A DNA stretch of 64,000 nt, from assembly GCA_038131935.1 (NCBI GenBank), contig JAYPQH010000027.1, forward strand, positions 1 to 64,000. The letters run 5' to 3'. Position 1 is the first letter of the stretch. Every line of letters begins with the position of its first letter. The translations under genes were made by a program, and so were the position numbers. The notes below the pieces were generated by a model. It did not search any database and had not been told where the DNA came from. It saw only the letters and a program-made list of their open reading frames with translations. This DNA is from Alphaproteobacteria bacterium (lineage in GTDB: Bacteria; Pseudomonadota; Alphaproteobacteria; UBA8317). Of this stretch, positions 4,006 to 61,634 are shown piece by piece.

Positions 4006-5243
4006 TCAACCTAGCCAATGAACTGGCCGCAAAAGATTGGGAACCGCCATTATATTCTCAAAAGCACGGGTCAATATTTTTGCGGTTGTTGGTCCTAAGG
4101 TAAAACCTTGATGGCCATGACCGAAATGAAACCATAAATCAGCGTGATGGGGTGCAGGACCAACAAAGGGCAACATCCATGGGTGGCAAGGCCGGCGGCC
4201 GCTCCATTCTATCACCAGATCATCGGTTTCTATGGTGAAGCTTTTTGCGAGTCTCTGTGCGCCTTGTTTAAGTTGTTGTCCGGTTGGATGTCTATGCCGT
4301 CCGACAAGTTCCGCACCACTTGTGATGCGAAGACCCCTAGACATGGGGGCTACAACCAAGCCCTGACTTACATCCATGATTGGACGATGCAATGTCTTCA
4401 AAGATTTGAGATGTGTGTGATGGCCATATTTATAAATCATCGGGATTTTGTAACCAAGAGGTTCCAAAAGAATAGGAGACCAAGGGCCCGCACATATGAC
4501 GAGATGGGACCCGCTGACTTTTGTGTTCGCGCCCTCAATTTGCCAACCATTTTTAATTTTTTTGATTTGCTGCACGTCGATGCATACCACATCTCCGCCT
4601 TGGCTAAGAAAGAGATTGCTGTAGGCCAATGTTAGAGCTTCTGGATCTTTACAAGTCCAGCTATCTTCCCACCAGATAGCGCCCTTGGGGGTATTACGCA
4701 GAATAGGTTCTTCTTTTCTTATACCCGCACCATCCAAGATCTTACTATTTACACCGTATTTTTCGTGGAGAACATCAGCGTATGCCGCATCCGTCTCAAT
4801 GCTGCATCACTCTGATAAAGATTATAAAATCCTTTGCGCTGGATAAGATGATCTGATGTTGATTTTGACAACCAATGATTATGATCCTCTCCAGCCTCAC
4901 GAATAAGCGTTGCATAGCAGGCGGCAATGGTAGAATAATTTTTGGGTAGCGAAAATTTTGCATACTGCATAAGCGCCTGGCGCTGTTGCCACAAAGCTTC
5001 CATGTCCCATTTGATATGATTTCCATTTCCGGTCATGGCTGACCAAAGGCTACGCCCCCATGGAAATGCGTATGGCTCAGCAGCCTCCATTTGGATGATG
5101 CCAGCGTTACCAAAACTTGTTTCTTGACCTGGTTTTTTCCTATCGACAACAACCACGTGATGACCGGCTTCTTGTAAGGACAAAGCCGTTGATATGCCCA
5201 CCATGCCGGCACCAAGGACGATGATGTCTTGTTGATTGAGCAT
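4006..5243 (-). CDS. FAD-dependent D-amino acid dehydrogenase/oxidase family (DadA-like), frameshift near 4800
   Basis: GAGMVG FAD motif, ETSFGNAG and C-term FGHGHQGFTLGP; the two ORFs join by restoring one T (AAFETDAAYAD). Confidence 0.85.
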
Positions 5244-5315
5244 GTCTTCACCATTTCTGCCACTGTTACCAAAAACCATAAAAGCACTGGATCATTTTAG
5301 CTATAGGGGCATAGG

Positions 5316-6731: not shown

Positions 6732-7832
6732 CTAAGATGATTTTCGTTTAGAGAGACAATTCAAAAACGATGCGGCCATATTTTTAATAAGTGTATGATA
6801 AAGTTCTGGGCCATTGGGAATATCTGCGCCCAAAGGATCAAGTATGCCAACATTTACATCAGTGTCCTCAACCAAGCGATTTATGATTTTGGGCTGGAAT
6901 TGAGGTTCAGAAAATATGCAATGAACTCTGTGATGTGCAATTTTGTTACGCAAAGCGACAATTTTTTTAGCACCTGGCATGATCTCTGGCGAAATGGTCA
7001 CAGAACCTACAGCAGAAAACCCAAAGCGCTTCTCAAAATACTGATAAGCATCATGAAAAACGATAAAGTTTCGGTTGTTTGCTTCTATCAGATGCAGTTG
7101 TTGTTCAATATTAACGAGCAGTTGGTCGAGTTTGTTTTCTAACATAAGTGTATTTTTGGTGTAGAGATCAGCGTGCAGAGGATCTATCTCTATAAGTCTG
7201 TGCTTTACCGCTCGCGCCAATATTTTTGCATTGACAGGATCTAGCCAAATATGTGGGTCTTCATGACCATGCTCCTTGTGACCATGCTCCTTGTGACCAT
7301 GCTCCTTGTGACCATGCTCCTTGTGACCATGCTCCTTGTGACCATGCTCCTTGTGACCATGCTCCTTGTGACCATGCTCCTTGTGACCATGCTCCTTGTG
7401 ACCATGCTCCTTGTGACCATGCTCCTTGTGACCATGATCAGATTGATGTTCATCATGATCATGTTTTTCAAAAGAGTCCGTTTCCCGAATTTGCCAGGTT
7501 ATCAAATCGTGTGTTTTCAGAAGATTGATAACAACAGCATCTCGAGCAATGTTGTGAATGGGTTTTGCTAAAGCTGGTTCTAGTTGATTGCCCATCCAAA
7601 AAATAATATTCGCGTCTTGCAGTTTTTGTGCTTGTGAGGGCTTTAAATTGTATGTGTGAGGTGACCCGGATCCTTCTACAATAAGGAAAGGTGATTCAAC
7701 ACCTTCCATCACTGCGGAAACTATTGAATGTATTGGCTTGATTGAAACGCCTACCTTAAGGCTGTCACCTGCCATTGCTGTTTGTGCTAAAAAACTTACT
7801 GAAAATGTTATTGCTAAAATATATTGACGCAT
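6732..7832 (-). CDS. znuA: zinc ABC transporter periplasmic binding protein
   Basis: SIKPIHS, SPHTYNLKPS, DPHIWLDP and VFHDAYQYFE motifs; His-rich loop; divergent from znuCB. Confidence 0.95.
   Translation of the reverse strand: MRQYILAITFSVSFLAQTAMAGDSLKVGVSIKPIHSIVSAVMEGVESPFLIVEGSGSPHTYNLKPSQAQKLQDANIIFWMGNQLEPALAKPIHNIARDAVVINLLKTHDLITWQIRETDSFEKHDHDEHQSDHGHKEHGHKEHGHKEHGHKEHGHKEHGHKEHGHKEHGHKEHGHKEHGHKEHGHKEHGHEDPHIWLDPVNAKILARAVKHRLIEIDPLHADLYTKNTLMLENKLDQLLVNIEQQLHLIEANNRNFIVFHDAYQYFEKRFGFSAVGSVTISPEIMPGAKKIVALRNKIAHHRVHCIFSEPQFQPKIINRLVEDTDVNVGILDPLGADIPNGPELYHTLIKNMAASFLNCLSKRKSS
7272..7436 (-). repeat. perfect 15-bp tandem repeat x11 (CATGGTCACAAGGAG) encoding (HGHKE)11
   Basis: Eleven identical copies read directly, in frame within the znuA His-rich loop. 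Confidence 0.97.
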
Positions 7833-9561: not shown

Positions 9562-9597
9562 GTAAGGATCGGGAGATAGTTGCGACATGGTTGAATC

Positions 9598-10008
9598 ATG
9601 ACCCATAATTCTGAAAATACCGTTAAGCTTACCAAAAACCAAACGGCCGTATTGGCTGTTTTGCAAGAAGCATCGGTGGCGATGAGCGCATATGATATTT
9701 TGGACCATGTGCGTGAAAAAGGCATAAAAGCACCTCTTCAAGTCTATCGTGCCCTTGAGCCACTCATCAAATATGGTCTTGTTCATCGCTTGGAATCAAT
9801 CAATGCATTTGTTACCTGTAGCCAGGAAAAATGTCAGAATAGCCACAGCATAGCTTTCATGATTTGCGAAGATTGCTCTGATATTCGCGAGGTTTCCGAA
9901 CAATTTATCTCAGAGTTCCTCGCGAAGTTGGGTGAGGCAGGTGGCTTTAAGGCACGTAAATCTAACATTGAACTCATCGGTTCGTGCGAAAGTTGCCAAG
10001 CTCGGTAA
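9598..10008 (+). CDS. zur: zinc uptake regulator (Fur family)
   Basis: SAYDIL, PLQVYRAL, HRLESINAF and two CxxC pairs. Confidence 0.92.
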   Translation: MTHNSENTVKLTKNQTAVLAVLQEASVAMSAYDILDHVREKGIKAPLQVYRALEPLIKYGLVHRLESINAFVTCSQEKCQNSHSIAFMICEDCSDIREVSEQFISEFLAKLGEAGGFKARKSNIELIGSCESCQAR

Positions 10009-10077
10009 TAACAGAACCTAAAGTGAGATATTTATGATTGGATAAGCCTCTTTTTTGAAAATCCATCAGAAAAAATA

Positions 10078-11010
10078 TCACCAAATCTTATCAGCTAATA
10101 CGAGATAGATAGAAACCATCAACAGAAGCATGCCTATCAACTCATTGATTTTGATTTTTTCGCGAAACATGAGCAGCGAAACGAGCATGGAGAAGACCAA
10201 TTCTATTTGTCCAACTGCCTTCACTTCAGCAACTGTGGCCAATGCGAAGCCTATAAACCATCCAATGGTTGCGCCGGTTCCTGAGATACCAACAATCACA
10301 CAATCAGATAAATTTTGAGTGATACGAAACAATTGTTCTCTATGGTAGACGTAAAGATACAGTCCGAAGCAAATGGTTTGGATGGTGAGTGATAAGACAG
10401 AAATGGTCAAAGACTTGTTCAAAACATCGCCCTCAAGCGAAAGCATGGAGAGACGGAAAAAAACCTGCGCAAGCGTGATGGCAATACCTGCGAGTAAACC
10501 ATAAAGACTACCCAAAGATACGAATGATGAAATTAGCGCATGAAATGTCTTAAAAATATTGTTGCTGGTCTTGGCAAAAGAGAGAAAAAGTACCGAGATA
10601 GATGCCAGAATAAAGCCAAGGCCTGTGAGGTGGGAAAAAACAATCCCAAGGAAGAAAATTTCAATAAATCCTGCCAAAATAACATCTATTTTGGAAAAAG
10701 CAGTTCCTGTTGCAAAGCTTTTTTTTGTAAATGCAGCCATCAACGCAATGGTAAAGACGACTTGGAAGAATGATCCAAGAAGGCAGTACATCAGCGCTGT
10801 TTGAGAGATTTCAAGGGGCTGTTTGGATTCTATGAAAAGATAGAGTACCCAAAGTCCAAATGTGAACGTCAGCGCCATGATAAATCTTTTATAGGCGGCC
10901 GCATACTGGCCCATATCAGGAATAAGTCGCTTTTGAAAAGCAGAACGTGATGTTTGGCAAGCTGCTGCAATGATCGCTGCGCCAACCCAGATAAGGTCAT
11001 GTGGTTGCAT
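10078..11010 (-). CDS. EamA/DMT family transporter
   Basis: About 10 TM segments; VKAVGQIELVFS...FREK motif. Confidence 0.8.
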   Translation of the reverse strand: MQPHDLIWVGAAIIAAACQTSRSAFQKRLIPDMGQYAAAYKRFIMALTFTFGLWVLYLFIESKQPLEISQTALMYCLLGSFFQVVFTIALMAAFTKKSFATGTAFSKIDVILAGFIEIFFLGIVFSHLTGLGFILASISVLFLSFAKTSNNIFKTFHALISSFVSLGSLYGLLAGIAITLAQVFFRLSMLSLEGDVLNKSLTISVLSLTIQTICFGLYLYVYHREQLFRITQNLSDCVIVGISGTGATIGWFIGFALATVAEVKAVGQIELVFSMLVSLLMFREKIKINELIGMLLLMVSIYLVLADKIW

Positions 11011-15790: not shown

Positions 15791-17386
15791 ATGATGGTCG
15801 ATTTGATTTCCCCAAAAAGCCTTAATGAATGGATTTTTGATGGCGAAGAATTGGCCCTTATCGATGTTCGCGAAGCTGGCCAATTTGGTGAAGGCCATTT
15901 GTTGTTTGCAATTCCTATCGCATTTTCTGAATTGGAAAATAGAATCCACAAAATGGTTCCCCGAAAAGATACCAGGATCGTGCTCTGTGCTGAAGCTGGG
16001 TCCGAGGTAATTGATCGCGCTGCAGCATGCTTACAGGACTTGGATTATGGTCATATCGCTATCCTTGATGGCGGGGTTGAAGCTTGGAGTGAAGCAGGAT
16101 TTACGCTGTTTAAGGGTGTTTTTGTTCCCTCCAAACTTTTTGGCGAAATGGTGGAAGAAGTCTACCATACACCACATATTTCCGCGCAGGAGTTGAAAGA
16201 TCTACAAGATAGAGATGCCAATATTTTGTTGCTCGATGGCCGTCCGAAAAGTGAGTTTAAGGCAATGACGCTGCCGGGAAGTACCTGTTGTCCCAATGCA
16301 GAGCTCCCCCGTCGCTTGCATCAACTAACCTCTGATCCTGATACGATGGTTGTTGTTCATTGTGCAGGCCGAACGAGATCTATTTTGGGTGCACAGACAT
16401 TGATCAATTTTGGTGTATCACAGAATGTTGTGGCGTTGGAAAATGGCACCCAAGGTTGGGCATTGATTGATCTGCCCTGGCAGCATGGAGCAACGGCATT
16501 CTATCCAGAAATTGATGATGGTGATTTGGAAGCTCAGCGAGCCCAAGCTCGTGCCATGGTTGAGAATTTACCGGTTCCTTTTTTGTCAGCTGATGATGCT
16601 GAGCGCTTGTTGTCATCCAAGGAGCACAGTCATTTCATTTTAGATGTACGTACACCTGAGGAATTTAAATTGGGTAGTTTGCCAGGCGCACAACATGCTG
16701 AGGGTGGACAGCTGATACAATCAACAGATCGGTATGTTGGTGTCCGTCATGGTAAAATATATTTATGGGATAACGAAGAACTTGTTCGCGCACCAGTGGT
16801 GGCGCATTGGTTGGCACAAATGGGCCATGATGTGTCAGTGTTAACGCAAGCTCCACGCCTATCTCTTGCCCATATTGAAGCCCAAAAACATCATGTTGAG
16901 CCAATCTCAATTGCAGCCTTGCGGTCTATGCAGGAAGCACGTGAAAATCTTGTTATTTTGGATCTACGGCCAAGCATGGATCATATTCAAGATGCCATAC
17001 CTGGAAGCATCTGGATTACCCGTGCACATCTGCATGTTCATCTGGAATCTCTTCAAAAAAACAAGCAAGTCATTTTGGTTGGGGATGATGATAAAGTTGC
17101 TTTGGTAGCGGGTGATTTGCAGAAATCAGGCCTTTCATGTGTGCAGTTGCAAGGTGGGATGCAGGCATGGGCTGAAGCGGGATTGGCAACCCAACCCAAC
17201 CCCAGCCAATTAACAGACAAAGATTGTATTGATTATTTATTCTTTGTTCATGACCGTCATCAAGGCAACAAGGACGCCATGCGTGCCTACTTAAGTTGGG
17301 AGCTTGGACTTATTGCCCAAGCTTCAGAACAGGAGTTGCAGAGTTACCCTCTTTGGCAGTTAAAAAACAACTTAAGCACGTCTTAA
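15791..17386 (+). CDS. multi-domain (four) rhodanese sulfurtransferase
   Basis: IDVRE, LDGRP, LDVRT and LDLRP domain starts; HCAGRTRS active-site loop; L[DQ]GGxxAW ends. Confidence 0.88.
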   Translation: MMVDLISPKSLNEWIFDGEELALIDVREAGQFGEGHLLFAIPIAFSELENRIHKMVPRKDTRIVLCAEAGSEVIDRAAACLQDLDYGHIAILDGGVEAWSEAGFTLFKGVFVPSKLFGEMVEEVYHTPHISAQELKDLQDRDANILLLDGRPKSEFKAMTLPGSTCCPNAELPRRLHQLTSDPDTMVVVHCAGRTRSILGAQTLINFGVSQNVVALENGTQGWALIDLPWQHGATAFYPEIDDGDLEAQRAQARAMVENLPVPFLSADDAERLLSSKEHSHFILDVRTPEEFKLGSLPGAQHAEGGQLIQSTDRYVGVRHGKIYLWDNEELVRAPVVAHWLAQMGHDVSVLTQAPRLSLAHIEAQKHHVEPISIAALRSMQEARENLVILDLRPSMDHIQDAIPGSIWITRAHLHVHLESLQKNKQVILVGDDDKVALVAGDLQKSGLSCVQLQGGMQAWAEAGLATQPNPSQLTDKDCIDYLFFVHDRHQGNKDAMRAYLSWELGLIAQASEQELQSYPLWQLKNNLSTS

Positions 17387-17472
17387 TATTTTGGATTTCA
17401 TGTTGTTTAAAGTATCAATCAAGTGGGCTAATTTGGCGTAAAATGGGCTTATTCTGTTTGTTCCCATAAAAC

Positions 17473-17488
17473 CGGCATAAGCTTTGCA
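17473..17488 (+). promoter_or_regulatory. putative sigma54 (-24/-12) promoter
   Basis: CGGCATAAGCTTTGCA: GG-N10-GC with GGCA and TTGCA, about 60 bp before the 17548 start. Confidence 0.65.
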
Positions 17489-17547
17489 AGACCAAAAACA
17501 GATCGTGACGGCAGGTTTCGATTTTTGTTTAGTTTTTTGCGGGTGTT

Positions 17548-18885
17548 GTGATGGTTGAATTGTTACAGAATGATGGTGCGGCAGTTGAAAACCGTGCTGA
17601 GGACAATATTCCTGATGTCCTTCTCATAGATGGTGTGGCTACCTTGCGCTCATTAGAACATGGTCAATTGCAACCTTTAACGCGCTTGTCCGCAACAAAA
17701 TTTGTGTTCACAACATCCCTCATCCCCTGCATGCGCGCAGTTCTTGAGCGTGGAACGATTACCAAAAAAGAGGCTGAATTATTTGATGAGGCTATACAAA
17801 AGCATTTGAGCGACGCCCTACTTGAGCAACTGAAATCAGAAGATGTTGCTGTATTAGAGCGTTTGCTCTTGCCTTTTGTTGAGGGTGACACTCAAGCAGC
17901 TGACAGGCGCCAAGTGCAGGAGCCTTTGGGTGTGGGTGAGCTGCTGCATGAAGCCTTGGCGACCTTGGAATCCTCGAAAAGGGTAACCCGTCCCATGGAG
18001 CAGCACCTCAAGATTGCTGTCTTGGTATTCCAGCAAATGATTGTTCCTGCCTTTGAACATATTTTGGCGTCGGGTGAAGTCGCCAAACATGATGCTGCAC
18101 TCATCAATGAAATTATCCAACATCATGTGGATGATGCCTTGCTTGATGCCATAGGGCCACAAGCAGTTGAGGTGATTGAGAAGCTTCTCCTTCCCTTTGC
18201 AGCAGATACAAATCCTATGGAATCGCAACAAAAAGATGTTGCAAAACTTTTTGCTGATGCCGTGGTGATGTTGGGGACAACCGTTGGTTCAGGGTTGGAG
18301 GATACAGAGAGATTGTCTTTGGCAAAATTTGCATTTCGCGACTTGGTGATGCCTGGTATTGAACAAGCCCTTCAAAACGGCCAATTGAGTGCTGCCGCCA
18401 GTGAAGATTTGAGATATATTCTGGGACAGCATGTGAATAACGATCTTTTAGACGCCATGACGCCACATTCAGTCAAGCTCATAGAAACAATTCTCACATC
18501 ACCTTTCTTTTCTATGAGTGATGAAGCTGGTACCCAGCATCCTTCAGAGGACAGGCTGGTTGAACATCATGTTGGGGATGTTGAGGCACAATTGCATGAA
18601 GCCATTATACGTTTAAGAGATGTAGATATCTCCTCAGAAAATTCGGCGTATTTATCCTACAAAGTATTTCAAGACATTGTTCTTGAAGCCATTCGCCAAT
18701 TGACCAAAGACACTGAAGCTTCCGAAAACTTAGCTGCATTGACCGGGGCAATTTTCTCAAACCATTGCAGTGTTGAGGTGGTCAATTTGTTTGATGAAAA
18801 AACCAAAGCGGAGCTCAAAGATTTCTTTGGCAGACCCCATATGCGCGGACATATCGACGAGCAGCTTTTGCTGCATGTTGCATAG
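17548..18885 (+). CDS. uncharacterised protein of four tandem ~85-aa alpha-helical repeats
   Basis: Long uninterrupted ORF with internal repeats ending ERLLLPF / EKLLLPF / ETILTSPF / KDFFGRP; no family I recognise. Confidence 0.85.
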   Translation: MMVELLQNDGAAVENRAEDNIPDVLLIDGVATLRSLEHGQLQPLTRLSATKFVFTTSLIPCMRAVLERGTITKKEAELFDEAIQKHLSDALLEQLKSEDVAVLERLLLPFVEGDTQAADRRQVQEPLGVGELLHEALATLESSKRVTRPMEQHLKIAVLVFQQMIVPAFEHILASGEVAKHDAALINEIIQHHVDDALLDAIGPQAVEVIEKLLLPFAADTNPMESQQKDVAKLFADAVVMLGTTVGSGLEDTERLSLAKFAFRDLVMPGIEQALQNGQLSAAASEDLRYILGQHVNNDLLDAMTPHSVKLIETILTSPFFSMSDEAGTQHPSEDRLVEHHVGDVEAQLHEAIIRLRDVDISSENSAYLSYKVFQDIVLEAIRQLTKDTEASENLAALTGAIFSNHCSVEVVNLFDEKTKAELKDFFGRPHMRGHIDEQLLLHVA

Positions 18886-18910
18886 TCTTGAGTAAAGGAC
18901 ATCAGAAACC

Positions 18911-20698
18911 ATGGTAGGAATAGTCACGGACACAGGTAATCTTTATGCACAAGCAGCCGTAAGAACAGCGGGTCAAGATAAAGAAGAGGCCATGCGGCGG
19001 CTTTCCACAGGCAAACAGTTAAATAGTGCTTCTGATGATGCGGCTGGGGTGTCCATTGCTTCACGGCATACGTTAAATATTGTTGCCTTGCGTAAAGCCA
19101 TGGATAATGCGGCAGACGCTCAAAACCTCCTCGCAACCGCTGAAGGTGGTATGGTTGAGATTGAGAACATCTTGCAGCGTGTTCGTGAACTCATTGTTCA
19201 AGGCGCCAATGACACATTGAGTCCAGATGACCGTTCGAAAGTAAAGTTAGAAATTGACTTGCTGATTGAAGAAATTGACCGTATCGCCGAAACCACCACT
19301 TGGGCGGGGGAAGTACTCTTCAATGGAGTTCGTCCCGCAGGTGAGCTTGCCACAACAATTGGTGAGGTAAAAAATCTGAACTTTCATATAGGAGCGATGT
19401 CCAATGCAGCCAACACGGTGGGCATTGATTTAAAAGCTCTTACTTCGCAGGCCTTGGGCATCAAAGCAGGTGTCATTATTCCAGAAATGACTGGCTCTGC
19501 AACAGATGTAGCACCTCTTGCCAATAGTTATGTGGTTAATAATGCAACAGCAACCTCGGCAAACTTGGAGATCAATTATAGCTTTAACGCAGGGGATACC
19601 TACAGCTTCAAAATTAATGGCCATACTGTGTCCATCACCGCTGATGCAGATGATGGCTATGCCAATAATATGGCTGGACTCAATGCCCAAATGGTCGATG
19701 AAATCAACAGGATTTCAGGGGCGCAATTTGATGGAAGCAATAATTTTACCCAATCAGATTTGGGTTTTTACGCAACGCTTTCCAATACAGGAAAAGTAGC
19801 GATCAGCTATCCTGCACCCGTTGTGAGTGATGTTACTGATAGCAACACCCCAGCGACCTTTTCGGTGACCAACCAAACGCTAACGCAATCAACTGTTGGG
19901 AATTCAGCTTCATTAAAAATCAATGGAACATCCGTCACGCTTCCTGCAGTTGCGTCTCCTTTCTCTAATGACGCAGCTGGTTGGTCGGCACAGGCGGTAC
20001 AAAAAATTGAGGATGCTGGGGTCTCTGGACTTACATTTGATACAACAACTGCTGGTTCCGTAACATTAACGTCTAATTTGGTCGTTTCCGATCTTGTAAC
20101 CACGGCCCAAGTTGGTGATGATGTGGGACTCCAAATTCAAGGATCGAAGGTATCCGTCATAGGGGCAGCGTCGGTAGGGGATAGCTTCAGTTTGGTGATT
20201 CCAACTGAGGCCATACCCAATGGAAAAACAATTACCGTGACCTTAGGCGCCACTGATGGAACCACTGCGGCAGAGATTGCCAGCCTTATCAAGGCAGAAA
20301 TTTCAACAGCAATGACGAATGATACAAACTTTGTTGTGGAGGTTGTTGATAATCAAGATGGCTCATTAACCATTGTGGAGGCGACGAGTAATGGCATTGT
20401 TGTTGACAGCAACAGCACAGCCAATGCGTCTTTGGTGAAGGTTGAAAATGCACTTTCAACACTTGCAGAAGCTCGAGCAGAATTAGGTGCCATGGTTAAT
20501 CGCATGGGCAGTGCCATTGAGAATTTGAGTTCAATTGCCGTAAATTCAGAATTAAGTCTTGGTCGCATCGTTGATGCAGATTACGCTGTAGAAATGGCGA
20601 AGTTCACAACAGCTCAAATATTGGAACAAGCAGCCATGGCGATGATGGCGCAAGCCAACGCTTCAAAGCAGCAGGTCATGACCTTATTGCAAGGATAA
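18911..20698 (+). CDS. fliC: flagellin (595 aa, large variable region)
   Basis: N-term RLSTGKQLNSASDDAAG, LQRVRELIVQGANDT; C-term RAELGAMVNR, GRIVDADYAVE, QILEQAAMAMMAQAN. Confidence 0.93.
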   Translation: MVGIVTDTGNLYAQAAVRTAGQDKEEAMRRLSTGKQLNSASDDAAGVSIASRHTLNIVALRKAMDNAADAQNLLATAEGGMVEIENILQRVRELIVQGANDTLSPDDRSKVKLEIDLLIEEIDRIAETTTWAGEVLFNGVRPAGELATTIGEVKNLNFHIGAMSNAANTVGIDLKALTSQALGIKAGVIIPEMTGSATDVAPLANSYVVNNATATSANLEINYSFNAGDTYSFKINGHTVSITADADDGYANNMAGLNAQMVDEINRISGAQFDGSNNFTQSDLGFYATLSNTGKVAISYPAPVVSDVTDSNTPATFSVTNQTLTQSTVGNSASLKINGTSVTLPAVASPFSNDAAGWSAQAVQKIEDAGVSGLTFDTTTAGSVTLTSNLVVSDLVTTAQVGDDVGLQIQGSKVSVIGAASVGDSFSLVIPTEAIPNGKTITVTLGATDGTTAAEIASLIKAEISTAMTNDTNFVVEVVDNQDGSLTIVEATSNGIVVDSNSTANASLVKVENALSTLAEARAELGAMVNRMGSAIENLSSIAVNSELSLGRIVDADYAVEMAKFTTAQILEQAAMAMMAQANASKQQVMTLLQG

Positions 20699-20722
20699 TA
20701 AATGCTTTCATTTCCATTTTAT

Positions 20723-20796
20723 GCCGATGAACAACCCTTTCGCCTTGGTGTTCATCGGTTGGGTAAGAGCAAAAGCGCGATAGCTGTTTCGCTTTT
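20723..20796. terminator. stem-loops between the convergent flagellin and aldolase genes
   Basis: GCCGATGAACA...TGTTCATCGGT and AAAAGCG...CGCTTTT inverted repeats. Confidence 0.5.
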
Positions 20797-20824
20797 AAAG
20801 CCTCTCTTTTAACCTGGTAAGAAT

Positions 20825-21601
20825 TCAAGTTTTGTAGCTTGGATCTATTTGGTCAAGTTTTCGGCAGAGCGCGGCAAACTCTAACGCCCCATAGTCTGCT
20901 TCTGCAGCTGCAAAATTGTTCACATCATTACCTGACTTCTGAGCAACATCTTCTGGTATGATGCGCAACGTGCCCGCTGCACCTGCATCCAACTGAACTT
21001 GAGCGGCTCGTTCCAAACGATACAACCATAAAAATGCCTCTGGAATTGTTTTGCCAGTCGTCAGAAGGCCATGGTTTTCTAGGATCATCGCATGGTGAGC
21101 CCCTAAGCTTTCAATCAAACGTTCGCGCTCATCAAGGTAGAGGCTGACACCTTCATAGGTGTGATAGCTCAAGCGGTGATGTAATGCGGTTGAGCCCATA
21201 GAAATGGGCAATAGACCTTCTTTGACAGCGGCGATAGCCATACCCGCGCGTGAATGGGTGTGCATGACAACATGATGTTCAGCATCTTCTGCCATGTGAA
21301 TGGCAGAGTGAATAACAAAACCAGCAGCGTTCACGGGGTAGGGGTTTTCATCATCTACTTTGTTCCCATCAACGTCAATTTTAACAAGATTAGAGGCCGT
21401 AACTTCATCATAGCGTAGGCCATAAGGATTGATCAGGAAATGAACCTTATCCCCAGGAACACGTGCGGTAAGATGGCCATATATCAGCTCACACCATCCG
21501 AAATGATCCACAAGTCTATAGGCTGCGGCTAGCGCAACCCGCAGGTCCCACTCTTCTTGAGGTATGGCTTTTTGCCTTGTGAATTCAACAAATGCGTTCA
21601 T
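20825..21601 (-). CDS. class II aldolase/adducin family protein
   Basis: GHLTARVP, AGFVIHSAIH, HTHS and NHGLL Zn ligands. Confidence 0.9.
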   Translation of the reverse strand: MNAFVEFTRQKAIPQEEWDLRVALAAAYRLVDHFGWCELIYGHLTARVPGDKVHFLINPYGLRYDEVTASNLVKIDVDGNKVDDENPYPVNAAGFVIHSAIHMAEDAEHHVVMHTHSRAGMAIAAVKEGLLPISMGSTALHHRLSYHTYEGVSLYLDERERLIESLGAHHAMILENHGLLTTGKTIPEAFLWLYRLERAAQVQLDAGAAGTLRIIPEDVAQKSGNDVNNFAAAEADYGALEFAALCRKLDQIDPSYKT

Positions 21602-21736
21602 CTTCCCAACTCCTCTTAATTTTAAGGCTTGATACCCTTGGTTCACGGAGATGGTGCAGAATTATCTTTCTGTTGGCAATCAAATTTTCTTAACCCAAGC
21701 AACCAAGAGTAATTGCTCTTGGCTGCTTAGATACAA

Positions 21737-35004: not shown

Positions 35005-36506
35005 TTAGATGTCCTTAAACAAATCAATTTGTTGGTTATTTGGAGCCTTTTTTTGTCCTGTCCGTCTCATGCCCGACCGCTGGGATCCATGACGCTTTTG
35101 GATATGATCAGAGATCTCATGGTGAACCTTGCGCTCAGATCGTCTCAATTGGGTGATGCGCTCTTTGGCAATTTTTGCTGCTTCTAGGTGATCAACGATC
35201 GGCCATGGATAATCATGTCCCAAACGGATGCCAGAATCGGCCAACATTAAGGGGGCTGCTTTCCATGGTTCATGGCACCAAGGAGCGGGAAGGGTGCGTA
35301 ATTCAGGTACCCATTGCATCACAAATTTGCCTTTAGGATCTTGGTCATAACCTTGTTTTATTGGGTTGTAGATCCGTAACGTATTGATACCTGTTGTCCC
35401 AGATTGCATTTGTATTTGAGAATAATGAATGCCAGGTTCGTAATCCGAAAATAATTTGGCCAAATGCAAAGCCGTATGCCGCCAAGGCTGGAAAAGATGA
35501 TAACTCGCGACAGAGGTTAACATGGCGCGCATGCGAAAATTTAGCCATCCTGTTTTCTGTAAACAACGCATACAAGCATCGACAAAAGGCCATCCTGTTT
35601 GACCAAAAGCCCAGCTTTGATGAAGGTTTTCATTTTCAAAAGGCGTGCGTAGATCTTGGTATAATGGATGAAAACTTCGAAACTCTATGGCAGGCTCCGT
35701 TTCAAGTTTTTGGATAAAATGGCAATGCCAATGTAAACGTGAGAGAACAGCTTGCTTGTCGCGTGGGGGAAGAGAGCTTTGCTGAATGGTTTGATAAATT
35801 TCCCGCAAAGATAAAGTGCCTAGCGATATATGTGCCGAAAGCCTTGAAGAGCCACCAAAAGCTGTCAAAGGGGACGAGATATGCTTTTGATAGCCAACGC
35901 CACGGTTGGAACAGAAGCTATGTAACAGGCGCAGCCCTTCCGCACGTGTTGTATCCCATGGCGTTTTCGCGGCAATCAAATTGGGCTCTTGCTGTGAAGA
36001 TAAATATTCTTTTGCCCTTAAACCTCTTGGTATGGGCAAGCATGCTTCATTCATAAGGTTTTGCCATTGCTTAGACCAACCTGAACTCCGCGTTTTAATC
36101 CCCGCACCACGCCAAATTGACGGAATTCATGCCATGATATCTGATGATCTTTGCACCAATTTTTTACCTTCTTGTCACGTTGATAGGTGAAGTGGTTCCC
36201 TGTTTCTTCATGGGAGAATAATGTGAAGGGGCCTAAGCTATCATGAATTTGCCTCAAAATAGCGGTGGGTTCTCCGGAAAAACGATGCAATTTTAAACCT
36301 TGCTCTTCTAAACTTGATGCCAGTTCCTGTAATGCAGGCTCTTTGACACGATCATGCCTCATAGCATAATCGGCTTGTTCTGTGCGCATGGGCTCGTTGA
36401 TATAAAGAGCTAGGATGGGGCCTCGTTGATGGGCATGCCAAAGCGGTGCGTGATCAGCCACACGAAGATCTCTTTTAAACCAAACCACAGAAAAATTTTT
36501 CATCAT
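35005..36506 (-). CDS. cryptochrome/DNA photolyase family protein (frameshift near 36095)
   Basis: WFKRDLRVADH N-term; SRLSAHI, GWPFVDACMR, WLNFRMRAM, DYEPGIH. The ORFs join by one A in an A-run. Confidence 0.88.
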
Positions 36507-36580
36507 TACGCCAGATACTGTTGCCACATGCCACCGCTGTGATGAACATAGGCGCGAACACAAAAAATGGGAGGCTGTTC

Positions 36581-37747
36581 ATGTTATTGGCAGATCGTTT
36601 TGCCCAATTGGGCGAAGAAAATGCATTCGCGGTGTTGGCTCGGGCAAATGCGCTAAAGGCGCAAGGTCGCGATATGATCAATCTTGGTATCGGGCAGCCA
36701 GATTTTCGGACTCCAGATATTATTGTCGAATCAGCTATCAAGGCCCTTCGTGACGGTGCCCATGGCTATACTGATTCTCTCGGCATCCCTCCGCTACGGG
36801 AAAAGGTTGTTGAATATCTCAGTAAGCGCGGGGTATCTGCACAACCAGATAGGGTTATGATTGTTCCTGGGGGCAAAGTGACCATGTTTTTTGCCTGTAT
36901 GTTATTAGGGCAGCCTGGACAAAAAATACTCTACCCAGACCCTGGTTTCCCGATTTATCGCTCTGCTGCGGCTGTGACAGGCGCTGAGGTCGTTGGTTAT
37001 CGCTTGCGTGAGGATGATGACTTCGCCCCTGATATGGAGCAATTAGAAACCTTGGTTGACGCCCAAACATCTCTATTGATTGTGAATTCTCCAGGTAACC
37101 CAACAGGCGGTATAATGCGCCAGCATCATATTGAGCAAATTGCTGAATTGATGCGCCGTCATCCTCAGTTGATCGTGATGTCAGATGAAATTTATGGGGA
37201 GATGCTGTATGATGGCGAGAAGCATTTTTCTTTGGCTTCCATAAATGATATCGCTGATCGGGTTATTTTGTTGGATGGATGGTCCAAAACATTTGCCATG
37301 ACAGGATGGCGGATGGGTTTTGGGCTATGGCCCTCTGCTTTGATTGATGCGGCACGCAAATTGTCAGTAAATTGCCATTCATGTGTTGCGGCTTCTTACC
37401 AGCACGCCGCGATTACAGCTTTGGATGAGGCTTGGGATCAGGTTGAGCATATGGTTGCAACATTTGACCGTCGACGTAAATTCGCCGCAGATCTTTTAAA
37501 CGATCTGCCTGGGGTGACATGCCGGGTGCCAAAAGGGGCGTTCTATGCTTTCCCAAATATTACCCAAACCGGCAGAGAGTCACGGGAATTGGCAAAAGAC
37601 CTGTTGGAAAATCATAGTTTGGCTTTGTTGTCAGGCACTGACTTTGGTGCTCAAGGCGAGGGTTTCTTGCGTGTTTCTGTGGCAGCAAGTGATGAAGACA
37701 TACAAAAGGGCGTGGATAGAATTCGTACTTGCTTGGCGCAGCATTAA
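36581..37747 (+). CDS. PLP-dependent aminotransferase class I/II (aspartate aminotransferase-like)
   Basis: GIGQPDF, NSPGNPTG, DEIY, WSKTFAMTGWRMG. Confidence 0.92.
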   Translation: MLLADRFAQLGEENAFAVLARANALKAQGRDMINLGIGQPDFRTPDIIVESAIKALRDGAHGYTDSLGIPPLREKVVEYLSKRGVSAQPDRVMIVPGGKVTMFFACMLLGQPGQKILYPDPGFPIYRSAAAVTGAEVVGYRLREDDDFAPDMEQLETLVDAQTSLLIVNSPGNPTGGIMRQHHIEQIAELMRRHPQLIVMSDEIYGEMLYDGEKHFSLASINDIADRVILLDGWSKTFAMTGWRMGFGLWPSALIDAARKLSVNCHSCVAASYQHAAITALDEAWDQVEHMVATFDRRRKFAADLLNDLPGVTCRVPKGAFYAFPNITQTGRESRELAKDLLENHSLALLSGTDFGAQGEGFLRVSVAASDEDIQKGVDRIRTCLAQH

Positions 37748-38969
37748 CCTTCAGCTGCCCGAAGCCTATGTGAAAAAGAGCGGTCCTGGATGGGCAAATG
37801 CAATATGCCCGCCAGGATTCCAAAGGCGATATTTAGCCACCAAATAACATCATAACTGTTGGTTTGATCATAAAGAACACCCCCTAGCCAAACGCCGAGG
37901 AATGCCCCAAGCTGGTGAGAGAAGAAGACCAACCCAAACAATGTTCCCATATATCGAACGCCGAAGAAACTTGCCACCAAACCGGAGGTCAATGGGACTG
38001 TAGAAAGCCATAACAAACCTGTACCAGCAGCATATAGAAGAACGGAGGCTTCACTTATGGGAAGCATGATAAACATCAATGTGATGGCTGATCGCGAGAG
38101 ATAGATGAATGATAAACCATAGGGCTTGGAATGTTGGCCGCCCCACCATCCAGCGACATTTGCACCGATGATATTAAACAGCCCTATCAAAGCTAAAGCA
38201 TATGCGCCCAAAAGGGGATCAAGTCCCTGGTCAACAATGAAGGTGGGTAGATGGGCACCAATAAATGTAACCTGAAATCCACACACAAAAAATCCAGCAG
38301 TTAGAAGAACATAGCTTGGTGTCTGACAAGCACAGATAATGGTGCGCTTTAAACCCACATCTTCATATTTGTCTTCATCGCTTGGGTTGGCAGGTGGTTT
38401 GGCAAGGACCCAACTGGCCAGCGCAATACATAACGCCATCATGGCTAAGATACTGGCTGTTTGTTCCCAACCAACCAAATCAATCTGCATCTGTGCTATT
38501 GGTACCACCAGAAGTTGCCCCAATGACCCTGAGGCGGTCACCAATCCCATCGTGAAAGATCGTTTTGATACCGGTAGTAACTTGCTCAATGCAGCCATAA
38601 TGATGGCAAAGATGTAAAGCCTACGCCCACACCCACTGCAATGCCTAAACTAAGATAGATAAGCCATGGGTCCTGTGAAAAAGGTATCAAGAAGACACCA
38701 GCGGCATAAATCAAAGCGCCAATGAATATAACAGGTCTTGCACCCCATTTATCCGACAGGGCGCCAGCAATAGGTTGCGATAAACCCCAAAAAATATTTT
38801 GTAAGGCAAGTGCCAATGACATCACCTCGCGATCCCAAGAAAATGTCATGCTTATGGGAGACATAAACAAGCCAAAACTCGTCCGGATTCCAAAAGACGT
38901 CATGGAGATGAAACAGCCCACAATAATCAATAGCCAAATACCTGAAATCGGTTTGTTGTCCTGAGTCAT
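37744..38969 (-). CDS. MFS transporter (frameshift near 38609)
   Basis: GALSDKWGAR motif A; two hydrophobic ORFs join by one T (GFTSFAIIMAAL). Confidence 0.85.
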
Positions 38970-39131
38970 CTCATTATCCCTCACATGAAGATATCTTTGT
39001 GGGCAAGGTCATCGCGTAAAGCAAGAAGAAAATTCTTAACAAAACAAGCTGAGTCGTTACAGCAGAATCGCGACAAAAAATTGTCATGAAATATTGCTAT
39101 CATCAAGAAATGTTAATGTTTTGAGGTGCGT

Positions 39132-41084: not shown

Positions 41085-42372
41085 TCAGAATTTTAATGCT
41101 GTTTCTTTGGCATAAGGAAGGAGGATTTCATTGGCGTTCTTTTGAGCCCGAGCAGCAGCTTCATCAACGCTTAAAGCAGGATCTGACAAAAGTGCCTGCA
41201 TTTCGTCTTCTACAGCTTTACGCACAGCAACGGTGTTGTAGGTTGCAATCCATGGTCCAGCGTACTGCAGCTGAGCAACAGCTGTTAAAGCATCAGGGTT
41301 TTTCTGTGTGAATTCCTTCATCTCCGGTAAATCATAAGCGGTCATGCGTGGAGCAAAATATCCTGTAAAGCGTGACCAATGACCAATCTTCTCAGCGCTG
41401 GTAAGCCAAGAAATAAAATCCCAGGCAGCTGCTTTCTGTTCCTTTGTTGTGCCTTTGAAGGAAACCAATGAAGCACCACCAATGGGAACTGCATTGATAA
41501 CATTGCGGGGCATAAATGCAACGTCGTAATCAAATTTTGCATTGTCACGAACAAAGGGAAAGCGCACCGGTAGACAACACAATCATGGATGCTTTCCCAG
41601 AGAAAAAGGATGTTGATACCTGCTTGGAGTTGGTGACGCCTGTTGGCATTGCCTTATGGATATGTGCCATTTCAGACCAAAATTTTAATGCGGCCTTTGT
41701 AGAGGGATGATAGTAATAAATCTCACCAGGGTAAAGTGGGTTATAGAATTGTCCACCAGATGCCATGGATAAAGCTTGAACCAACCACCCATTGTAGTCA
41801 TAGTTGGATGGCATCATTAGGCCGTACCGTTCTTCATCTGTTTTTGTGAGCTTTTTTGCAGTTTCAATCCATTCTGACCAGGTGGCTGGCGCTTTTTCTA
41901 TACCTGCAGCTTTAAAATGTTCTTTGTTATAGTAAAGAATAGGGGTCGAGTTCTGAAATGGTACGGAGTAAAGTTTACCCTGATATAAGGCATTTGGGCG
42001 CACGGCTGGCCAGAATTCATTTAAGAACGCTTCGAGGTCAACATCTGCTGGTGCAATATCGGCAATTGGGACGATTAAGTCATTCATTGCCAGTTCAGTG
42101 GCAAAATTTGCTGACATCAGAACAACAGCAGGAGGCTTTCCTGCTTCAGCTGCTGCTTGGCTTTTTACCTTTGTGTTATCGTATGATCCTGTGAAAACCC
42201 CGACAACTTCTACCTTATCTTGTGAGCTGTTATACTCCTTTACAAGTTTTTGCATTTCCCGGGAAAGCTTGCCTTGCACAGGTGCAGGGAACATAAATTC
42301 AATTTTTTCTGCTGAAATTGCAGAGGTAGCGAGCATGACGCTCACAATACCTGCGATTAGACCTTTTTTCAT
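41085..42372 (-). CDS. ABC substrate-binding protein, UgpB-like (frameshift near 41557)
   Basis: Signal peptide; PFQNSTPILYYNK and PIGGASL; the two ORFs join by removing one C. Confidence 0.85.
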
Positions 42373-42383
42373 ATGGGTCACTC

Positions 42384-49310: not shown

Positions 49311-49340
49311 AATATTATTAAAGTGGGGGTTGGTGTTTCT

Positions 49341-49817
49341 GTGGTTCTGTTCCTTTCGACTGTTACCAATAAGGTGGATAAGAAAGGGCGCGTGTCAGTG
49401 CCGGCTGGATTTCGCGCAAAATTAACAGAAGCAGGGTACCAATCTGTGGTCTGTTATGAGTCGCTTGGTGATCGATCTTGTTTAGACGGATGTTCTTTGG
49501 ACCGCATGGTGAAACTTGCTGAGGCATTTGACGCGATGGATCCTTTTGATGAGGAGCGTAATGCTTTTGCAGCCCACATCCTTGGTGGATCCAAGGAATT
49601 GCCCATAGATGGTGATGGGCGAATTGTGTTGCCACAGGAGTTCATGGCCTTTGCTAGGATCACGACAGAGGCTTGTTTTGTGGGCTTGGGGCCGACATTT
49701 CAAGTCTGGAACCCAGACGATTTTGCTCGATATAGGGCTGATGCACGCAATTTGGCACGGTCCGCGCGTGGGCATATTCCTTGGCAAGGAAAAGTTGCTG
49801 CAAAAGGGGAAATGTAA
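49341..49817 (+). CDS. mraZ: division/cell wall cluster repressor MraZ
   Basis: DKKGRVSVPAGFR and DGDGRIVLP DxxGR motifs; first gene of the dcw cluster. Confidence 0.95.
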   Translation: MVLFLSTVTNKVDKKGRVSVPAGFRAKLTEAGYQSVVCYESLGDRSCLDGCSLDRMVKLAEAFDAMDPFDEERNAFAAHILGGSKELPIDGDGRIVLPQEFMAFARITTEACFVGLGPTFQVWNPDDFARYRADARNLARSARGHIPWQGKVAAKGEM

Positions 49818-50779
49818 TGCATATCCCTGTGCTTCTCCATGCGTTACTCGATGGGCTAGGCCCTTTGCAGGGAAAAGAAATATTTGATGGCACTTTTGGT
49901 GCAGGTGGGTATAGTCGCGCCTTTCTAGAAGCTGGTGCTGCTAAGGTCATGGCTTGTGATCAAGATGGGCATGTTAAGTCCATTGCCGCATGTCTGGCTG
50001 ATGAATTTTCTGGGCGTTTGGAATTTTATCAAAGAAATTTTGCGGATGTTCAAGAATTTATCAGTGGTGAGCTTGATGTCATGGTCGTTGATCTTGGTGT
50101 GTCTTCGATGCAGCTTGATCAAGCTGGGCGTGGTTTTTCATTTCAAAAAGATGGCCCTTTGGACATGCGCATGGGGCAGAAAGGTTCAAGTGCTGCAGAT
50201 CTTGTCAATCATCTTCCTGCTGAAGAGTTGGCTGATATTCTCTATCGTTTCGGAGAAGAGCGTGCGAGTCGTCGTATCGCAGCGGCAATTGTGAAAAGAC
50301 GTGAACAGATTCCTTTGGAGCGAACGCTGGAATTGGCTGAGCTTGTCGCAACTGTGGTGCGAGGGCGACCTGGTCATCATCCTGCTACGCGCACTTTTCA
50401 GGCTTTGCGCATTGCTGTGAATGGTGAATTTGATGCGCTTCAAAATTTTCTGATCGCATCGCAAGCGAAGCTTAGACCTGGTGGTATTCTGGCTGTTGTT
50501 AGTTTTCATTCTTTGGAAGATCGCTTGGTCAAAACATTTTTGACAGCTTCAGCCAGCCGTCAGGCGGGGACTTCTCGTTATCAGCCAGATGTCCAGCGGG
50601 CTGAACCCGCTTTTGAACTTATGTCAAAAGCGATCAAGCCCAAAGCTGATGAGTTGCAAGCCAACCCAAGGGCACGCTCAGCAATCTTACGGCTTGCAAA
50701 GCGGACAAAATCTCCCTGTTTGGTCCAGCCTACGCCGTTACATGAGGCGTTGAAAGGGCACTGGAGGGTTGCAGCATGA
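49817..50779 (+). CDS. rsmH: 16S rRNA m4C1402 methyltransferase
   Basis: HIPVLL, DGTFGAGGYS, DLGVSSMQLD, SFHSLEDRLVK, NPRARSA. Confidence 0.96.
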   Translation: MHIPVLLHALLDGLGPLQGKEIFDGTFGAGGYSRAFLEAGAAKVMACDQDGHVKSIAACLADEFSGRLEFYQRNFADVQEFISGELDVMVVDLGVSSMQLDQAGRGFSFQKDGPLDMRMGQKGSSAADLVNHLPAEELADILYRFGEERASRRIAAAIVKRREQIPLERTLELAELVATVVRGRPGHHPATRTFQALRIAVNGEFDALQNFLIASQAKLRPGGILAVVSFHSLEDRLVKTFLTASASRQAGTSRYQPDVQRAEPAFELMSKAIKPKADELQANPRARSAILRLAKRTKSPCLVQPTPLHEALKGHWRVAA

Positions 50780-51132
50780 ATTTTCTCAACCTGTTCCTTG
50801 CGGTTTTGGCATCCATGGCAGCGTTACTAACCTATCAAATCAAAAATAAGGTGAGTGGACTCAATAGAGACATTGCTCGGATAGAGCGTTTGCTGGTTGT
50901 TGAACAGGAGCGTATAGAAGTTCAAAAAGCTGAATGGGCTTACCTCACGGCACCAGCAAGATTGGAAAAACTTGCTCGTGAGCATTTGGATCTCGATACC
51001 CCTGCAACTGCGCAATTGGCTCGGGTCAGTATGGTTCCGATGCGTCCTAAAAGATCGTCAAAAGGTACGCTTTTGCGTTTTCGTGACAGAGTTCCCTTTC
51101 CTGTTTCTCGTGCGCGATGGTACCGCCCATGA
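50776..51132 (+). CDS. ftsL: cell division protein FtsL
   Basis: One TM segment plus coiled coil, KAEWAYLTAPARLEKLA; position between rsmH and ftsI. Confidence 0.85.
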   Translation: MNFLNLFLAVLASMAALLTYQIKNKVSGLNRDIARIERLLVVEQERIEVQKAEWAYLTAPARLEKLAREHLDLDTPATAQLARVSMVPMRPKRSSKGTLLRFRDRVPFPVSRARWYRP

Positions 51133-61633: not shown

Positions 61634-61634
61634 T

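Follow-up and report, generated by a model that had tools for sequence, protein, structure and literature searches.

Background

The flagellin helpers FliS, FliW, FlaF/FlbT, GlfM and FlmG are central to the timing of filament assembly and to the decoration of the filament, both of which are, to our knowledge, essentially unstudied in the abundant pelagic Alphaproteobacteria, including the roseobacter lineages. Flagellin genes commonly lie apart from the basal-body clusters, and some are transcribed in a sigma54-dependent manner, as are the class IV flagellins of Caulobacter, with FlbD, and flaA of Vibrio. FlaF is described as the flagellin secretion chaperone of Caulobacter and the flagellin glycosyltransferase FlmG as the carrier of a flagellin-binding TPR domain (PMC7591256), and GlfM, an 89-aa helical adaptor, is presented as the specificity factor of a Maf-2 flagellin glycosyltransferase (bioRxiv 10.1101/2023.12.03.569772). 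The latter study also speaks of 'tripartite versus bipartite' systems, in which the helical part that links to flagellin is respectively free or fused to the glycosyltransferase (bioRxiv 10.1101/2023.12.03.569772). Here we describe an alphaproteobacterial locus, contained in a 64-kb stretch of DNA that was analysed as a whole (hereafter the window), in which a flagellin gene directly follows a gene for a protein built of helical repeats.

Organization of the locus

A preliminary description of this DNA had placed here a 445-aa open reading frame (ORF), a 25-bp gap with an AAGGA, a 595-aa flagellin and stem-loops past its stop codon, and had claimed that the 64 kb hold no fliD, fliS, flaF, flbT, hook or basal-body gene; our analysis bears out all of these points. 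The upstream ORF, whose product we term P0001, occupies 17548-18885 on the forward strand and encodes 445 aa from the GTG at 17548, or 444 aa from the ATG at 17551, which is the more likely start; P0003, a database relative with 97% identity to P0001, begins at this ATG and has 444 aa. The gap (18886-18910) contains a Shine-Dalgarno-like AAGGA at 18895-18899, with the flagellin ATG 11 nt downstream. The flagellin gene (18911-20698, forward strand) encodes 595 aa, and both Pfam flagellin domains score above the gathering cut-offs: Flagellin_N (PF00669, E = 1.1e-31, 110.2 bits against a cut-off of 26.6) and Flagellin_C (PF00700, E = 1.9e-19, 70.2 bits against 23.0). All the flagellin subfamily models of NCBIfam score under their curated cut-offs, and therefore no named subtype can be assigned. 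Its conserved helical domains at the two termini are of the ordinary kind and flank about 320 aa that are rich in Ser/Thr (23%); an ungapped self-comparison of the protein revealed no significant internal repeat (score 53, against a shuffle maximum of 58).

Past its stop codon, the flagellin gene is followed by two hairpins on the forward strand, the first of 13 pairs at about 20723-20759 and the second, with a short U run after it, at about 20771-20796. The minimum free energy is -32.5 kcal/mol (z = -2.4, with 4 of 200 shuffles folding as well). The second is a likely terminator, common to the convergent gene on the opposite strand at 20825-21646; a simple terminator scan, which gave 5 matches against 4.1 in shuffles, did not flag it. 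Apart from the two genes of the pair, none of the 94 window ORFs scanned with Pfam matched a flagellar family; these comprise 62 ORFs of at least 120 aa and 32 others, of which 30 have 50-119 aa and mostly lie outside larger ORFs, nine shadow ORFs of at least 120 aa that overlap better ones having been set aside. No Sigma54 or activator family was found among the ORFs scanned within the window, and Rfam gave no match at E<=1 in 17000-21200. The flanking genes are metabolic, both here and at the second locus considered below. The GC content is even over 12-26 kb (0.42-0.49), so that base composition gives no hint of recent transfer.

A family of helical modules

P0001 is acidic (pI 4.8), is devoid of hydrophobic segments and ends in -HVA; likewise, the proteins of its family have pI values of 4.5-5.7 and no membrane segment. 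The proposal that it is a four-repeat helical protein held up in sequence comparison and in structure prediction. Self-comparison of P0001 gave diagonal scores of 136, 102 and 85 at offsets of 107, 102 and 209, respectively, where 30 shuffles reached no more than 46, and the four units align with each other and with relatives that possess a single unit. The module thus delimited is an all-helical unit of about 100 aa with five predicted helices. Its copies in P0001 extend over 17605-17922 (aa ~20-125, from self-comparison and module alignment), 17923-18243 (aa ~126-232), 18244-18567 (aa ~233-340, from module alignment) and 18568-18882 (aa ~341-445), the fourth being the most diverged and bearing the HVA end. 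At the end of module 2 stands a DVA that lines up with the -VA closing the two-module relatives; a C-terminal -VA is invariant in all the two- and four-module members listed. These alignments show that P0001, with its four modules, arose when two ancestral proteins of two modules, each ending in -VA, were joined head to tail. An AlphaFold2 (AF2) model of P0001, of moderate confidence (pLDDT 65-70), is likewise all-helical, with four modules separated by flexible, low-confidence linkers.

Searches against known families agree with the claim that the ORF belongs to none that is recognised. The best Pfam match of P0001 has an E-value of 0.031 and falls short of the cut-off of that family; NCBIfam assigned P0001 to no family, and a profile of the family found no PDB sequence at E<=10. 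Matches in PHROGs and PADLOC were marginal (E 0.001-0.009) and were taken as chance. Even at E<=1, Pfam detected no FliS, FlaF, FlbT, FliW, FliT or FlgN, and no TPR, Sel1, HEAT, ARM or Maf, in P0001 or 16 family members. Foldseek comparisons of the models (pLDDT 65-70) with the PDB gave nothing at E<=0.001, the best E-values being 0.072 and 0.0054 with TM<=0.30; the models come closest to generic helical repeats of the protein-binding sort (TPR, ARM, HAT and designed repeat proteins), and neither FliS nor a solved chaperone is among the matches listed.

Ten relatives of P0001 were recovered among 1.84 billion representative proteins, all of them unnamed and from marine Alphaproteobacteria/Paracoccaceae, and the largest subgroup consists of Paracoccaceae clusters of 605 members (P0006/P0040) and 256 members (P0010/P0077, in which one record names the cultured strain FZCC0083). 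Word-index protein searches returned near relatives only (1 match in one case and 19, all of one subgroup, in the other). The ESM Atlas gave no usable match for P0001 and just its own unnamed cluster for P0040, and tblastn of P0006 against 72,556 plasmids gave no match. In one relative, P0011, a single C-terminal module is joined to a GT2 glycosyltransferase (PF00535, 2e-22); this module scores 62.7 bits against a profile built without P0011, and the cluster has 9 members. In the titles and abstract openings of the literature on flagellin, sigma54/RpoN and alphaproteobacterial chaperones, we found no description of the module family. Taken together, the comparisons support the upstream ORF as a genuine gene that is conserved and that represents an unrecognised family, so far restricted to marine Alphaproteobacteria.

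Recurrence of the pair and of a sigma54-type promoter

An alignment-based search of genome contigs, with 144 pattern matches, yielded a single further locus, L001. Here a flagellin gene is preceded on its own strand, at a distance of 29 bp, by the gene for a two-module homologue; the partner proteins of the two loci are 30% identical, the N-termini of the flagellins are 60% identical, and the neighbouring genes differ completely. Hence, the repeated adjacency to flagellin that the preliminary description had named as support for its claim is found in a distant relative: a family member precedes a same-strand flagellin gene by 25-29 bp in both of the loci read directly. L001 also encodes a one-module paralogue about 2.2 kb upstream, with two opposite-strand genes in between and no adjacent flagellin. 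Records from the lineage of the window carry consecutive locus tags for partner and flagellin (P0013; P0128). Three more pairs come, within each pair, from the same source and from contigs of equal size (P0005/P0142, 6388; P0110/P0136, 6391; P0039/P0137, 4305), an indirect indication of linkage; between P0136 and the flagellin fragment of L001 the identity is 97%. The P0005/P0142 pair represents a third lineage. The Paracoccaceae clusters lie beyond the two loci read, and the adjacency may not be general across the family.

Upstream of the P0001 gene, the candidate promoter motif CGGCATAAGCTTTGCA (17473-17488, forward strand) has GG at 17474-5 and GC at 17486-7, the GG-N10-GC originally reported at this position. 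It shows 2 mismatches to TGGCAC-N5-TTGCA, with both GG and GC intact. By count alone the motif is at chance level: with <=2 mismatches allowed, the window contains 34 such sites, and shuffles lead one to expect 35.3. On manual reading, CGGCATAAGCTTTGCA is the only one of these that keeps GG and GC, is intergenic and lies just 5' of a gene on the same strand. In L001 an exact TGGCAC-N5-TTGCA is located 40 nt 5' of the two-module gene, and a second exact copy 35 nt 5' of the one-module paralogue. With <=1 mismatch allowed, 0.30 matches would be expected where L001 has 2, a count attained in 3 of 200 shuffles. As exact motifs precede both homologous genes of L001, the window motif is credible; in both loci the GG and GC are 10 nt apart and stand 5' of the gene, in its orientation. 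From the motif, a transcription start is predicted near 17498, with a leader of about 50 nt. A sigma70-promoter scan was not above shuffles (3 against 5.6). Between the sigma54-type promoter and the flagellin start, the forward strand has no further motif that resembles a sigma54 (<=2 mismatches) or a sigma28 (<=3 mismatches) site. Given this absence within the upstream gene and the gaps of 25 and 29 bp, we infer that partner and flagellin genes are co-transcribed; an internal promoter of another type may precede the flagellin. The three upstream regions, when aligned, are too diverged for any activator site to be visible.

Functional implications

Because the pairing and the promoter type recur in a distant relative, a role of the partner protein in the handling or control of flagellin is probable. 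As to how, we tentatively favor, at somewhat short of even likelihood, an operon of two genes under sigma54 control, of which the first would encode a new kind of flagellin-associated protein, soluble, acidic and cytoplasmic, that acts as a binding partner, escort or adaptor. In such a scheme the sigma54 RNA polymerase would start near 17498 and transcribe the gene for the repeat protein ahead of that for flagellin, so that the module, as a putative flagellin-recognition unit, would be made together with its client. The partner would bind flagellin in the cytoplasm soon after its synthesis and either hold or escort it until flagellar type III export or present it to another factor; more speculatively, the invariant -VA might be a recognition tail, for instance for proteolysis. 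The synteny, the promoter motifs, the acidic and all-helical character of the partner, its nearness in fold to generic protein-binding repeats and the GT2-module fusion in P0011 speak for this proposal; the fusion recalls flagellin glycosyltransferases that carry a helical flagellin-binding part, as FlmG does (PMC7591256), or recruit one, as with GlfM (bioRxiv 10.1101/2023.12.03.569772). Counted against it are the L001 paralogue that lies away from flagellin, the chance-level count of the window motif, searches that found no sequence or fold similarity to FliS, FlaF, FlbT, FliW or a solved chaperone, and the AF2 confidence of only 65-70; it is also unusual for an abundant structural protein to be the second gene of an operon.

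The P0011 fusion could also be viewed as the one-protein form of a glycosylation system, of which the free module would be the split form, recruiting a separately encoded glycosyltransferase to the Ser/Thr-rich middle part of the flagellin in the manner of GlfM with Maf-2. Helical GlfM and the flagellin-binding TPR domains of Maf-1 and FlmG provide precedents for such an adaptor. We nevertheless consider this unlikely: no glycosyltransferase or sugar-pathway gene occurs near the pair, either in the 94 window ORFs or in 9.6 kb upstream in L001, and the fusion is confined to one cluster of 9 members. Moreover, we know of no GT2 enzymes among the flagellin glycosyltransferase classes, namely Maf and FlmG. 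A similarly low probability attaches to the view that the protein is a regulator rather than a flagellin binder, acting on flagellin mRNA in the manner of FlbT, on a sigma54 activator or on another checkpoint factor, and kept short-lived by -VA to time flagellin synthesis. Both family genes of L001 have a sigma54-type promoter of their own, including the paralogue not adjacent to flagellin, and therefore the family resembles a part of a sigma54 regulon and not strictly a flagellin neighbour; the constancy of the -VA terminus would also fit, and the alphaproteobacterial flagellin regulators FlaF and FlbT are encoded beside flagellin genes (PMC7591256). Against a regulator, there is no match to a nucleic-acid-binding or known regulator family, and the acidity of the family proteins argues against RNA or DNA binding. 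That a C-terminal -VA would act as a degron is a conjecture, which also counts against this explanation.

The metabolic flanks at both loci, the small and unnamed family and the reading of two loci might suggest a functionless adjacency, in which a gene peculiar to the lineage and with some other role stands before flagellin by accident, or in which each of the two genes has a transcript of its own. We regard this as quite improbable, as adjacency, strand, the 25-29 bp gap and promoter type are kept at 30% partner identity amid entirely different neighbouring genes, and as the pair appears on equal-sized contigs in a third lineage (P0005/P0142). Returning to the flagellin-associated protein that we favor, a bolder extension, which we think rather doubtful, would have marine Alphaproteobacteria using the module as a previously unrecognised, portable domain for flagellin recognition, whether alone, in twos, in fours or joined to a glycosyltransferase. 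Next to FliS/FlaF and GlfM/TPR, this would add a third way of handling flagellin in the cytoplasm, with the module expressed from flagellin's own sigma54 operon and the -VA tail coupling its lifetime to flagellin export.

As a candidate flagellin partner for pelagic Alphaproteobacteria, with no counterpart in Pfam, NCBIfam or the PDB, the module family would add a new domain to those with which "hypothetical proteins" of marine metagenomes are annotated, and its natural glycosyltransferase fusion might offer a handle on flagellin glycosylation. Were the gene only a lineage-specific passenger, the locus would be that of an ordinary flagellin gene. The earlier proposal of a solitary or specialised flagellin, perhaps for a non-motility or antigen-variant filament, is conjectural at the scale of 64 kb; the protein has ordinary flagellin domains at both ends, and flagellin genes distant from basal-body clusters are common. 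Of the original idea of a candidate new system, the new accessory-protein family stands; the system itself was overstated, given the familiar theme of a flagellin with a dedicated helper.

Comparison with known flagellin systems

Like FliS and FlaF, the partner is acidic, all-helical, cytoplasmic and encoded close to flagellin, and by analogy it may bind flagellin before export. It differs from them in having no sequence match to flagellar families in Pfam or NCBIfam and no FliS among the Foldseek matches listed, in a module of five predicted helices used in tandem as two or four copies, and in being encoded upstream of flagellin, in what is proposed to be the same operon, behind a sigma54-type promoter. 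With GlfM and the TPR domains of FlmG/Maf-1 it shares helical bundles or repeats of about 90-100 aa, the module here likewise being free or GT2-fused. However, GlfM, compared by its description only, is encoded beside maf-2, whereas no Maf or other glycosyltransferase is found near this pair in the window or L001, and unlike the FlmG/Maf-1 domains the module family has no TPR or Maf match in Pfam. Finally, the locus resembles the class IV flagellin genes of Caulobacter and flaA of Vibrio in the -24 GG / -12 GC promoter before the flagellin transcription unit, but here an extra gene follows the promoter, and flagellin is the putative second cistron.

Organization of the flagellin locus

The window encodes, on its forward strand, a compact unit that begins with a sigma54-type motif (CGGCATAAGCTTTGCA, 17473-17488), continues with the ORF for a four-module helical-repeat protein, P0001 (GTG at 17548, or ATG at 17551, to 18885), and, after a 25-bp gap with AAGGA at 18895-18899, leads into a 595-aa flagellin ORF (18911-20698). 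The latter is recognized by Pfam (Flagellin_N 1.1e-31, Flagellin_C 1.9e-19); in NCBIfam, every flagellin subfamily model scores it under the curated cut-off. Two hairpins follow at about 20723-20759 and 20771-20796 (MFE -32.5 kcal/mol, z = -2.4; 4 of 200 shuffles equally stable), and a convergent gene lies beyond them on the reverse strand (20825-21646). A Pfam scan of 94 further ORFs of the window showed metabolic, transport and cell-wall/division genes (e.g. znuABC-zur, a dehydratase, a rhodanese, an aldolase, a DHDPS-like protein, an SDR and the dcw cluster) and found no flagellar, sigma54 or activator gene among them, in agreement with the isolation from other flagellar genes noted in the preliminary description. 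GC content across 12-26 kb is even (0.42-0.49). The motif, both ORFs, the gap and the hairpins are all present as first described across 17473-20796, and that description is therefore accurate.

Elsewhere in the window five genes are broken into a pair of neighboring or overlapping ORFs apiece, which match successive parts of one Pfam profile: a DAO oxidoreductase (4006-5279), a photolyase (35005-36563), an MFS transporter (37744-38984) and a solute-binding protein (41085-42381) on the reverse strand, and FtsW (58029-59158) on the forward strand. As FtsW is essential, indel errors in the assembly are no less likely an explanation than gene decay. The apparently complete dcw cell-division/cell-wall cluster spans 49323-63999 (mraZ, rsmH, ftsL-like, ftsI, murE, murF, mraY, murD, ftsW, murG, murC, murB, ddl and the start of ftsQ). 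Near the other end, one ORF (212-799) has RTX calcium-binding nonapeptide repeats (E 7e-9), and a 55-aa fragment (1829-1996) resembles ParE toxins with a score under the cut-off (E 6e-4).

A family of helical-repeat proteins

The upstream ORF had been thought to belong to no recognized family, and database comparisons bear this out: the best Pfam match of P0001 has an E-value of 0.031, under its cut-off, NCBIfam yields no family, PHROGs and PADLOC give marginal matches only, and the family profile finds nothing among PDB sequences at E<=10. The four repeats proposed for it are real, with ungapped self-diagonals scoring 136 (offset 107), 102 (offset 102) and 85 (offset 209), where 30 shuffles reach at most 46, and the four roughly 105-aa units can be aligned with each other and with single-unit relatives. 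The module has the rough consensus W/L-L-x-E-A-L-x-T-L ... F-V-F-x-N ... A-F-E-A-I-L, followed by I-T-x-E-E-A-x-L ... Q-x-H-L-S-D-x-L-L-x-A-L ... L-L-x-P-F. Since both halves of P0001, modules 1-2 as well as 3-4, match 221-231-aa two-module relatives end to end and terminate, as these do, in -VA, the protein is the product of two two-module proteins fused head to tail. The corresponding sites are at 18238-18243 and 18877-18882, and the internal DVA kept at the junction of the halves is a relic of this fusion. All two- and four-module members listed end in -VA, an invariant terminus that may resemble C-terminal protease-recognition tails. The AF2 model of P0001 (mean pLDDT 64.9, pTM 0.28) shows modules of five helices each, joined by linkers of low confidence (residues 110-127, 215-229 and 319-343); that of a two-module homologue from the related locus L001 reached pLDDT 69.8 and pTM 0.47. 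Foldseek searches of the PDB with these models of moderate confidence gave no match at E<=0.001, the top matches (E 0.072 and 0.0054, TM<=0.30) being generic TPR, ARM, HAT or designed helical repeats. The family proteins are acidic (pI 4.5-5.7), lack a hydrophobic segment and are taken to be cytoplasmic.

A word-index protein search recovered a single relative, P0003, 97% identical to P0001 and labelled 'hypothetical protein [Alphaproteobacteria bacterium]', while exhaustive phmmer against 1.84 billion representatives recovered 10 proteins at E<=1e-3, half of them at <=1e-10. These include the two-module P0004, P0005 and P0006, the one-module P0007 to P0010 and P0012, and P0011, from a cluster of 9 members, in which a GT2 glycosyltransferase (PF00535, 2.2e-22) carries one C-terminal module (residues 225-316) that scores 62.7 bits with a family profile built without it. 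Source names are 'hypothetical protein' throughout, except for P0041 ('predicted DsbA family dithiol-disulfide isomerase'). Their taxonomic labels, where given, are Alphaproteobacteria, Paracoccaceae/Rhodobacteraceae and 'Rhodobacterales bacterium FZCC0083'; a study of the CHAB-I-5 lineage of roseobacters mentions FZCC0083 and describes flagellar pathways as conserved and motility as predicted in that lineage (PMC12075776).

Pairing with flagellin and the putative promoter

A scan of genome contigs returned one locus, L001 (contig CAJWEI010000091.1, an uncultured alphaproteobacterial MAG). Here a 231-aa two-module homologue (9644-10339), 30% identical to P0001, is followed after 29 bp by a flagellin incomplete at the contig end (10369-10938; Flagellin_N 9.9e-35), so that the adjacency to flagellin recurs with a distant partner. 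This flagellin is 60% identical to the N-terminus of the window flagellin and 97% identical to P0136, a 793-aa flagellin. The remaining L001 genes are metabolic and unlike the window's flanks. A 202-aa one-module paralogue with an unrelated C-terminal extension (6862-7470) lies 2.2 kb upstream of the pair, two opposite-strand genes intervening. More indirectly, records from the window's own lineage have consecutive locus tags for partner and flagellin, and in three further cases (P0005/P0142, P0110/P0136 and P0039/P0137) family member and flagellin share a source and come from equally long contigs (6388, 6391 and 4305, respectively), each pair probably lying on one contig. P0005, 34% identical to P0001, represents a third, separate lineage.

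Sigma54-type motifs occur in the window at chance level (34 at <=2 mismatches against 35.3 expected). L001 has exact TGGCAC-N5-TTGCA at 9588-9603, 40 nt before the two-module gene, and at 6811-6826, 35 nt before the one-module paralogue, these being its only two motifs at <=1 mismatch (0.30 expected; 3 of 200 shuffles have as many). Given where the window motif lies, and given the exact copies in L001, 17473-17488 is best read as a sigma54 promoter, as originally suggested. Caulobacter flagellins and Vibrio flaA use sigma54. The stretch from the motif to the flagellin start contains no second sigma54-like match at <=2 mismatches and, on the forward strand, no sigma28-like match at <=3 mismatches; over the whole window the loose sigma28-type pattern (<=3 mismatches) is in excess (77 against 52.6 in shuffles, 0 of 100 reaching 77), probably through composition. 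Sigma70 and terminator scans were not above shuffles, and Rfam had no match in 17000-21200 (E<=1). The short spacing (25 bp in the window, 29 bp in L001), the ribosome-binding site that lies in either gap and the preserved order of the two genes lead us to infer that partner and flagellin are co-transcribed. The pairing, as judged from sequence, is conserved and sigma54-linked.

Proposed role and comparison with known systems

The upstream gene defines an unrecognized family, most likely one of flagellin-associated helpers. Made together with flagellin, the module product would bind it or handle it directly, and this is the best-supported reading for several reasons: the operon partnership persists although the partner diverges quickly (30% identity, compared with 60% for the N-terminal part of the flagellin), the helical-repeat build is typical of protein-binding scaffolds, and the acidic, cytoplasmic character is that of secretion chaperones. 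The module may be an escort or chaperone, a glycosylation adaptor or a regulator. The existence of the GT2-module fusion P0011 also favors binding to flagellin or direct action on its handling, and parallels flagellin glycosyltransferases that recruit a helical part, such as Maf-2 with GlfM, the latter an 89-residue predicted four-helix bundle (bioRxiv 10.1101/2023.12.03.569772). The analysis lends no support to the suggestion in the preliminary description of a solitary, non-motility or antigen-variant flagellin. A flagellin with a dedicated accessory protein is a known theme, and what is new here is the family to which the putative accessory protein belongs.
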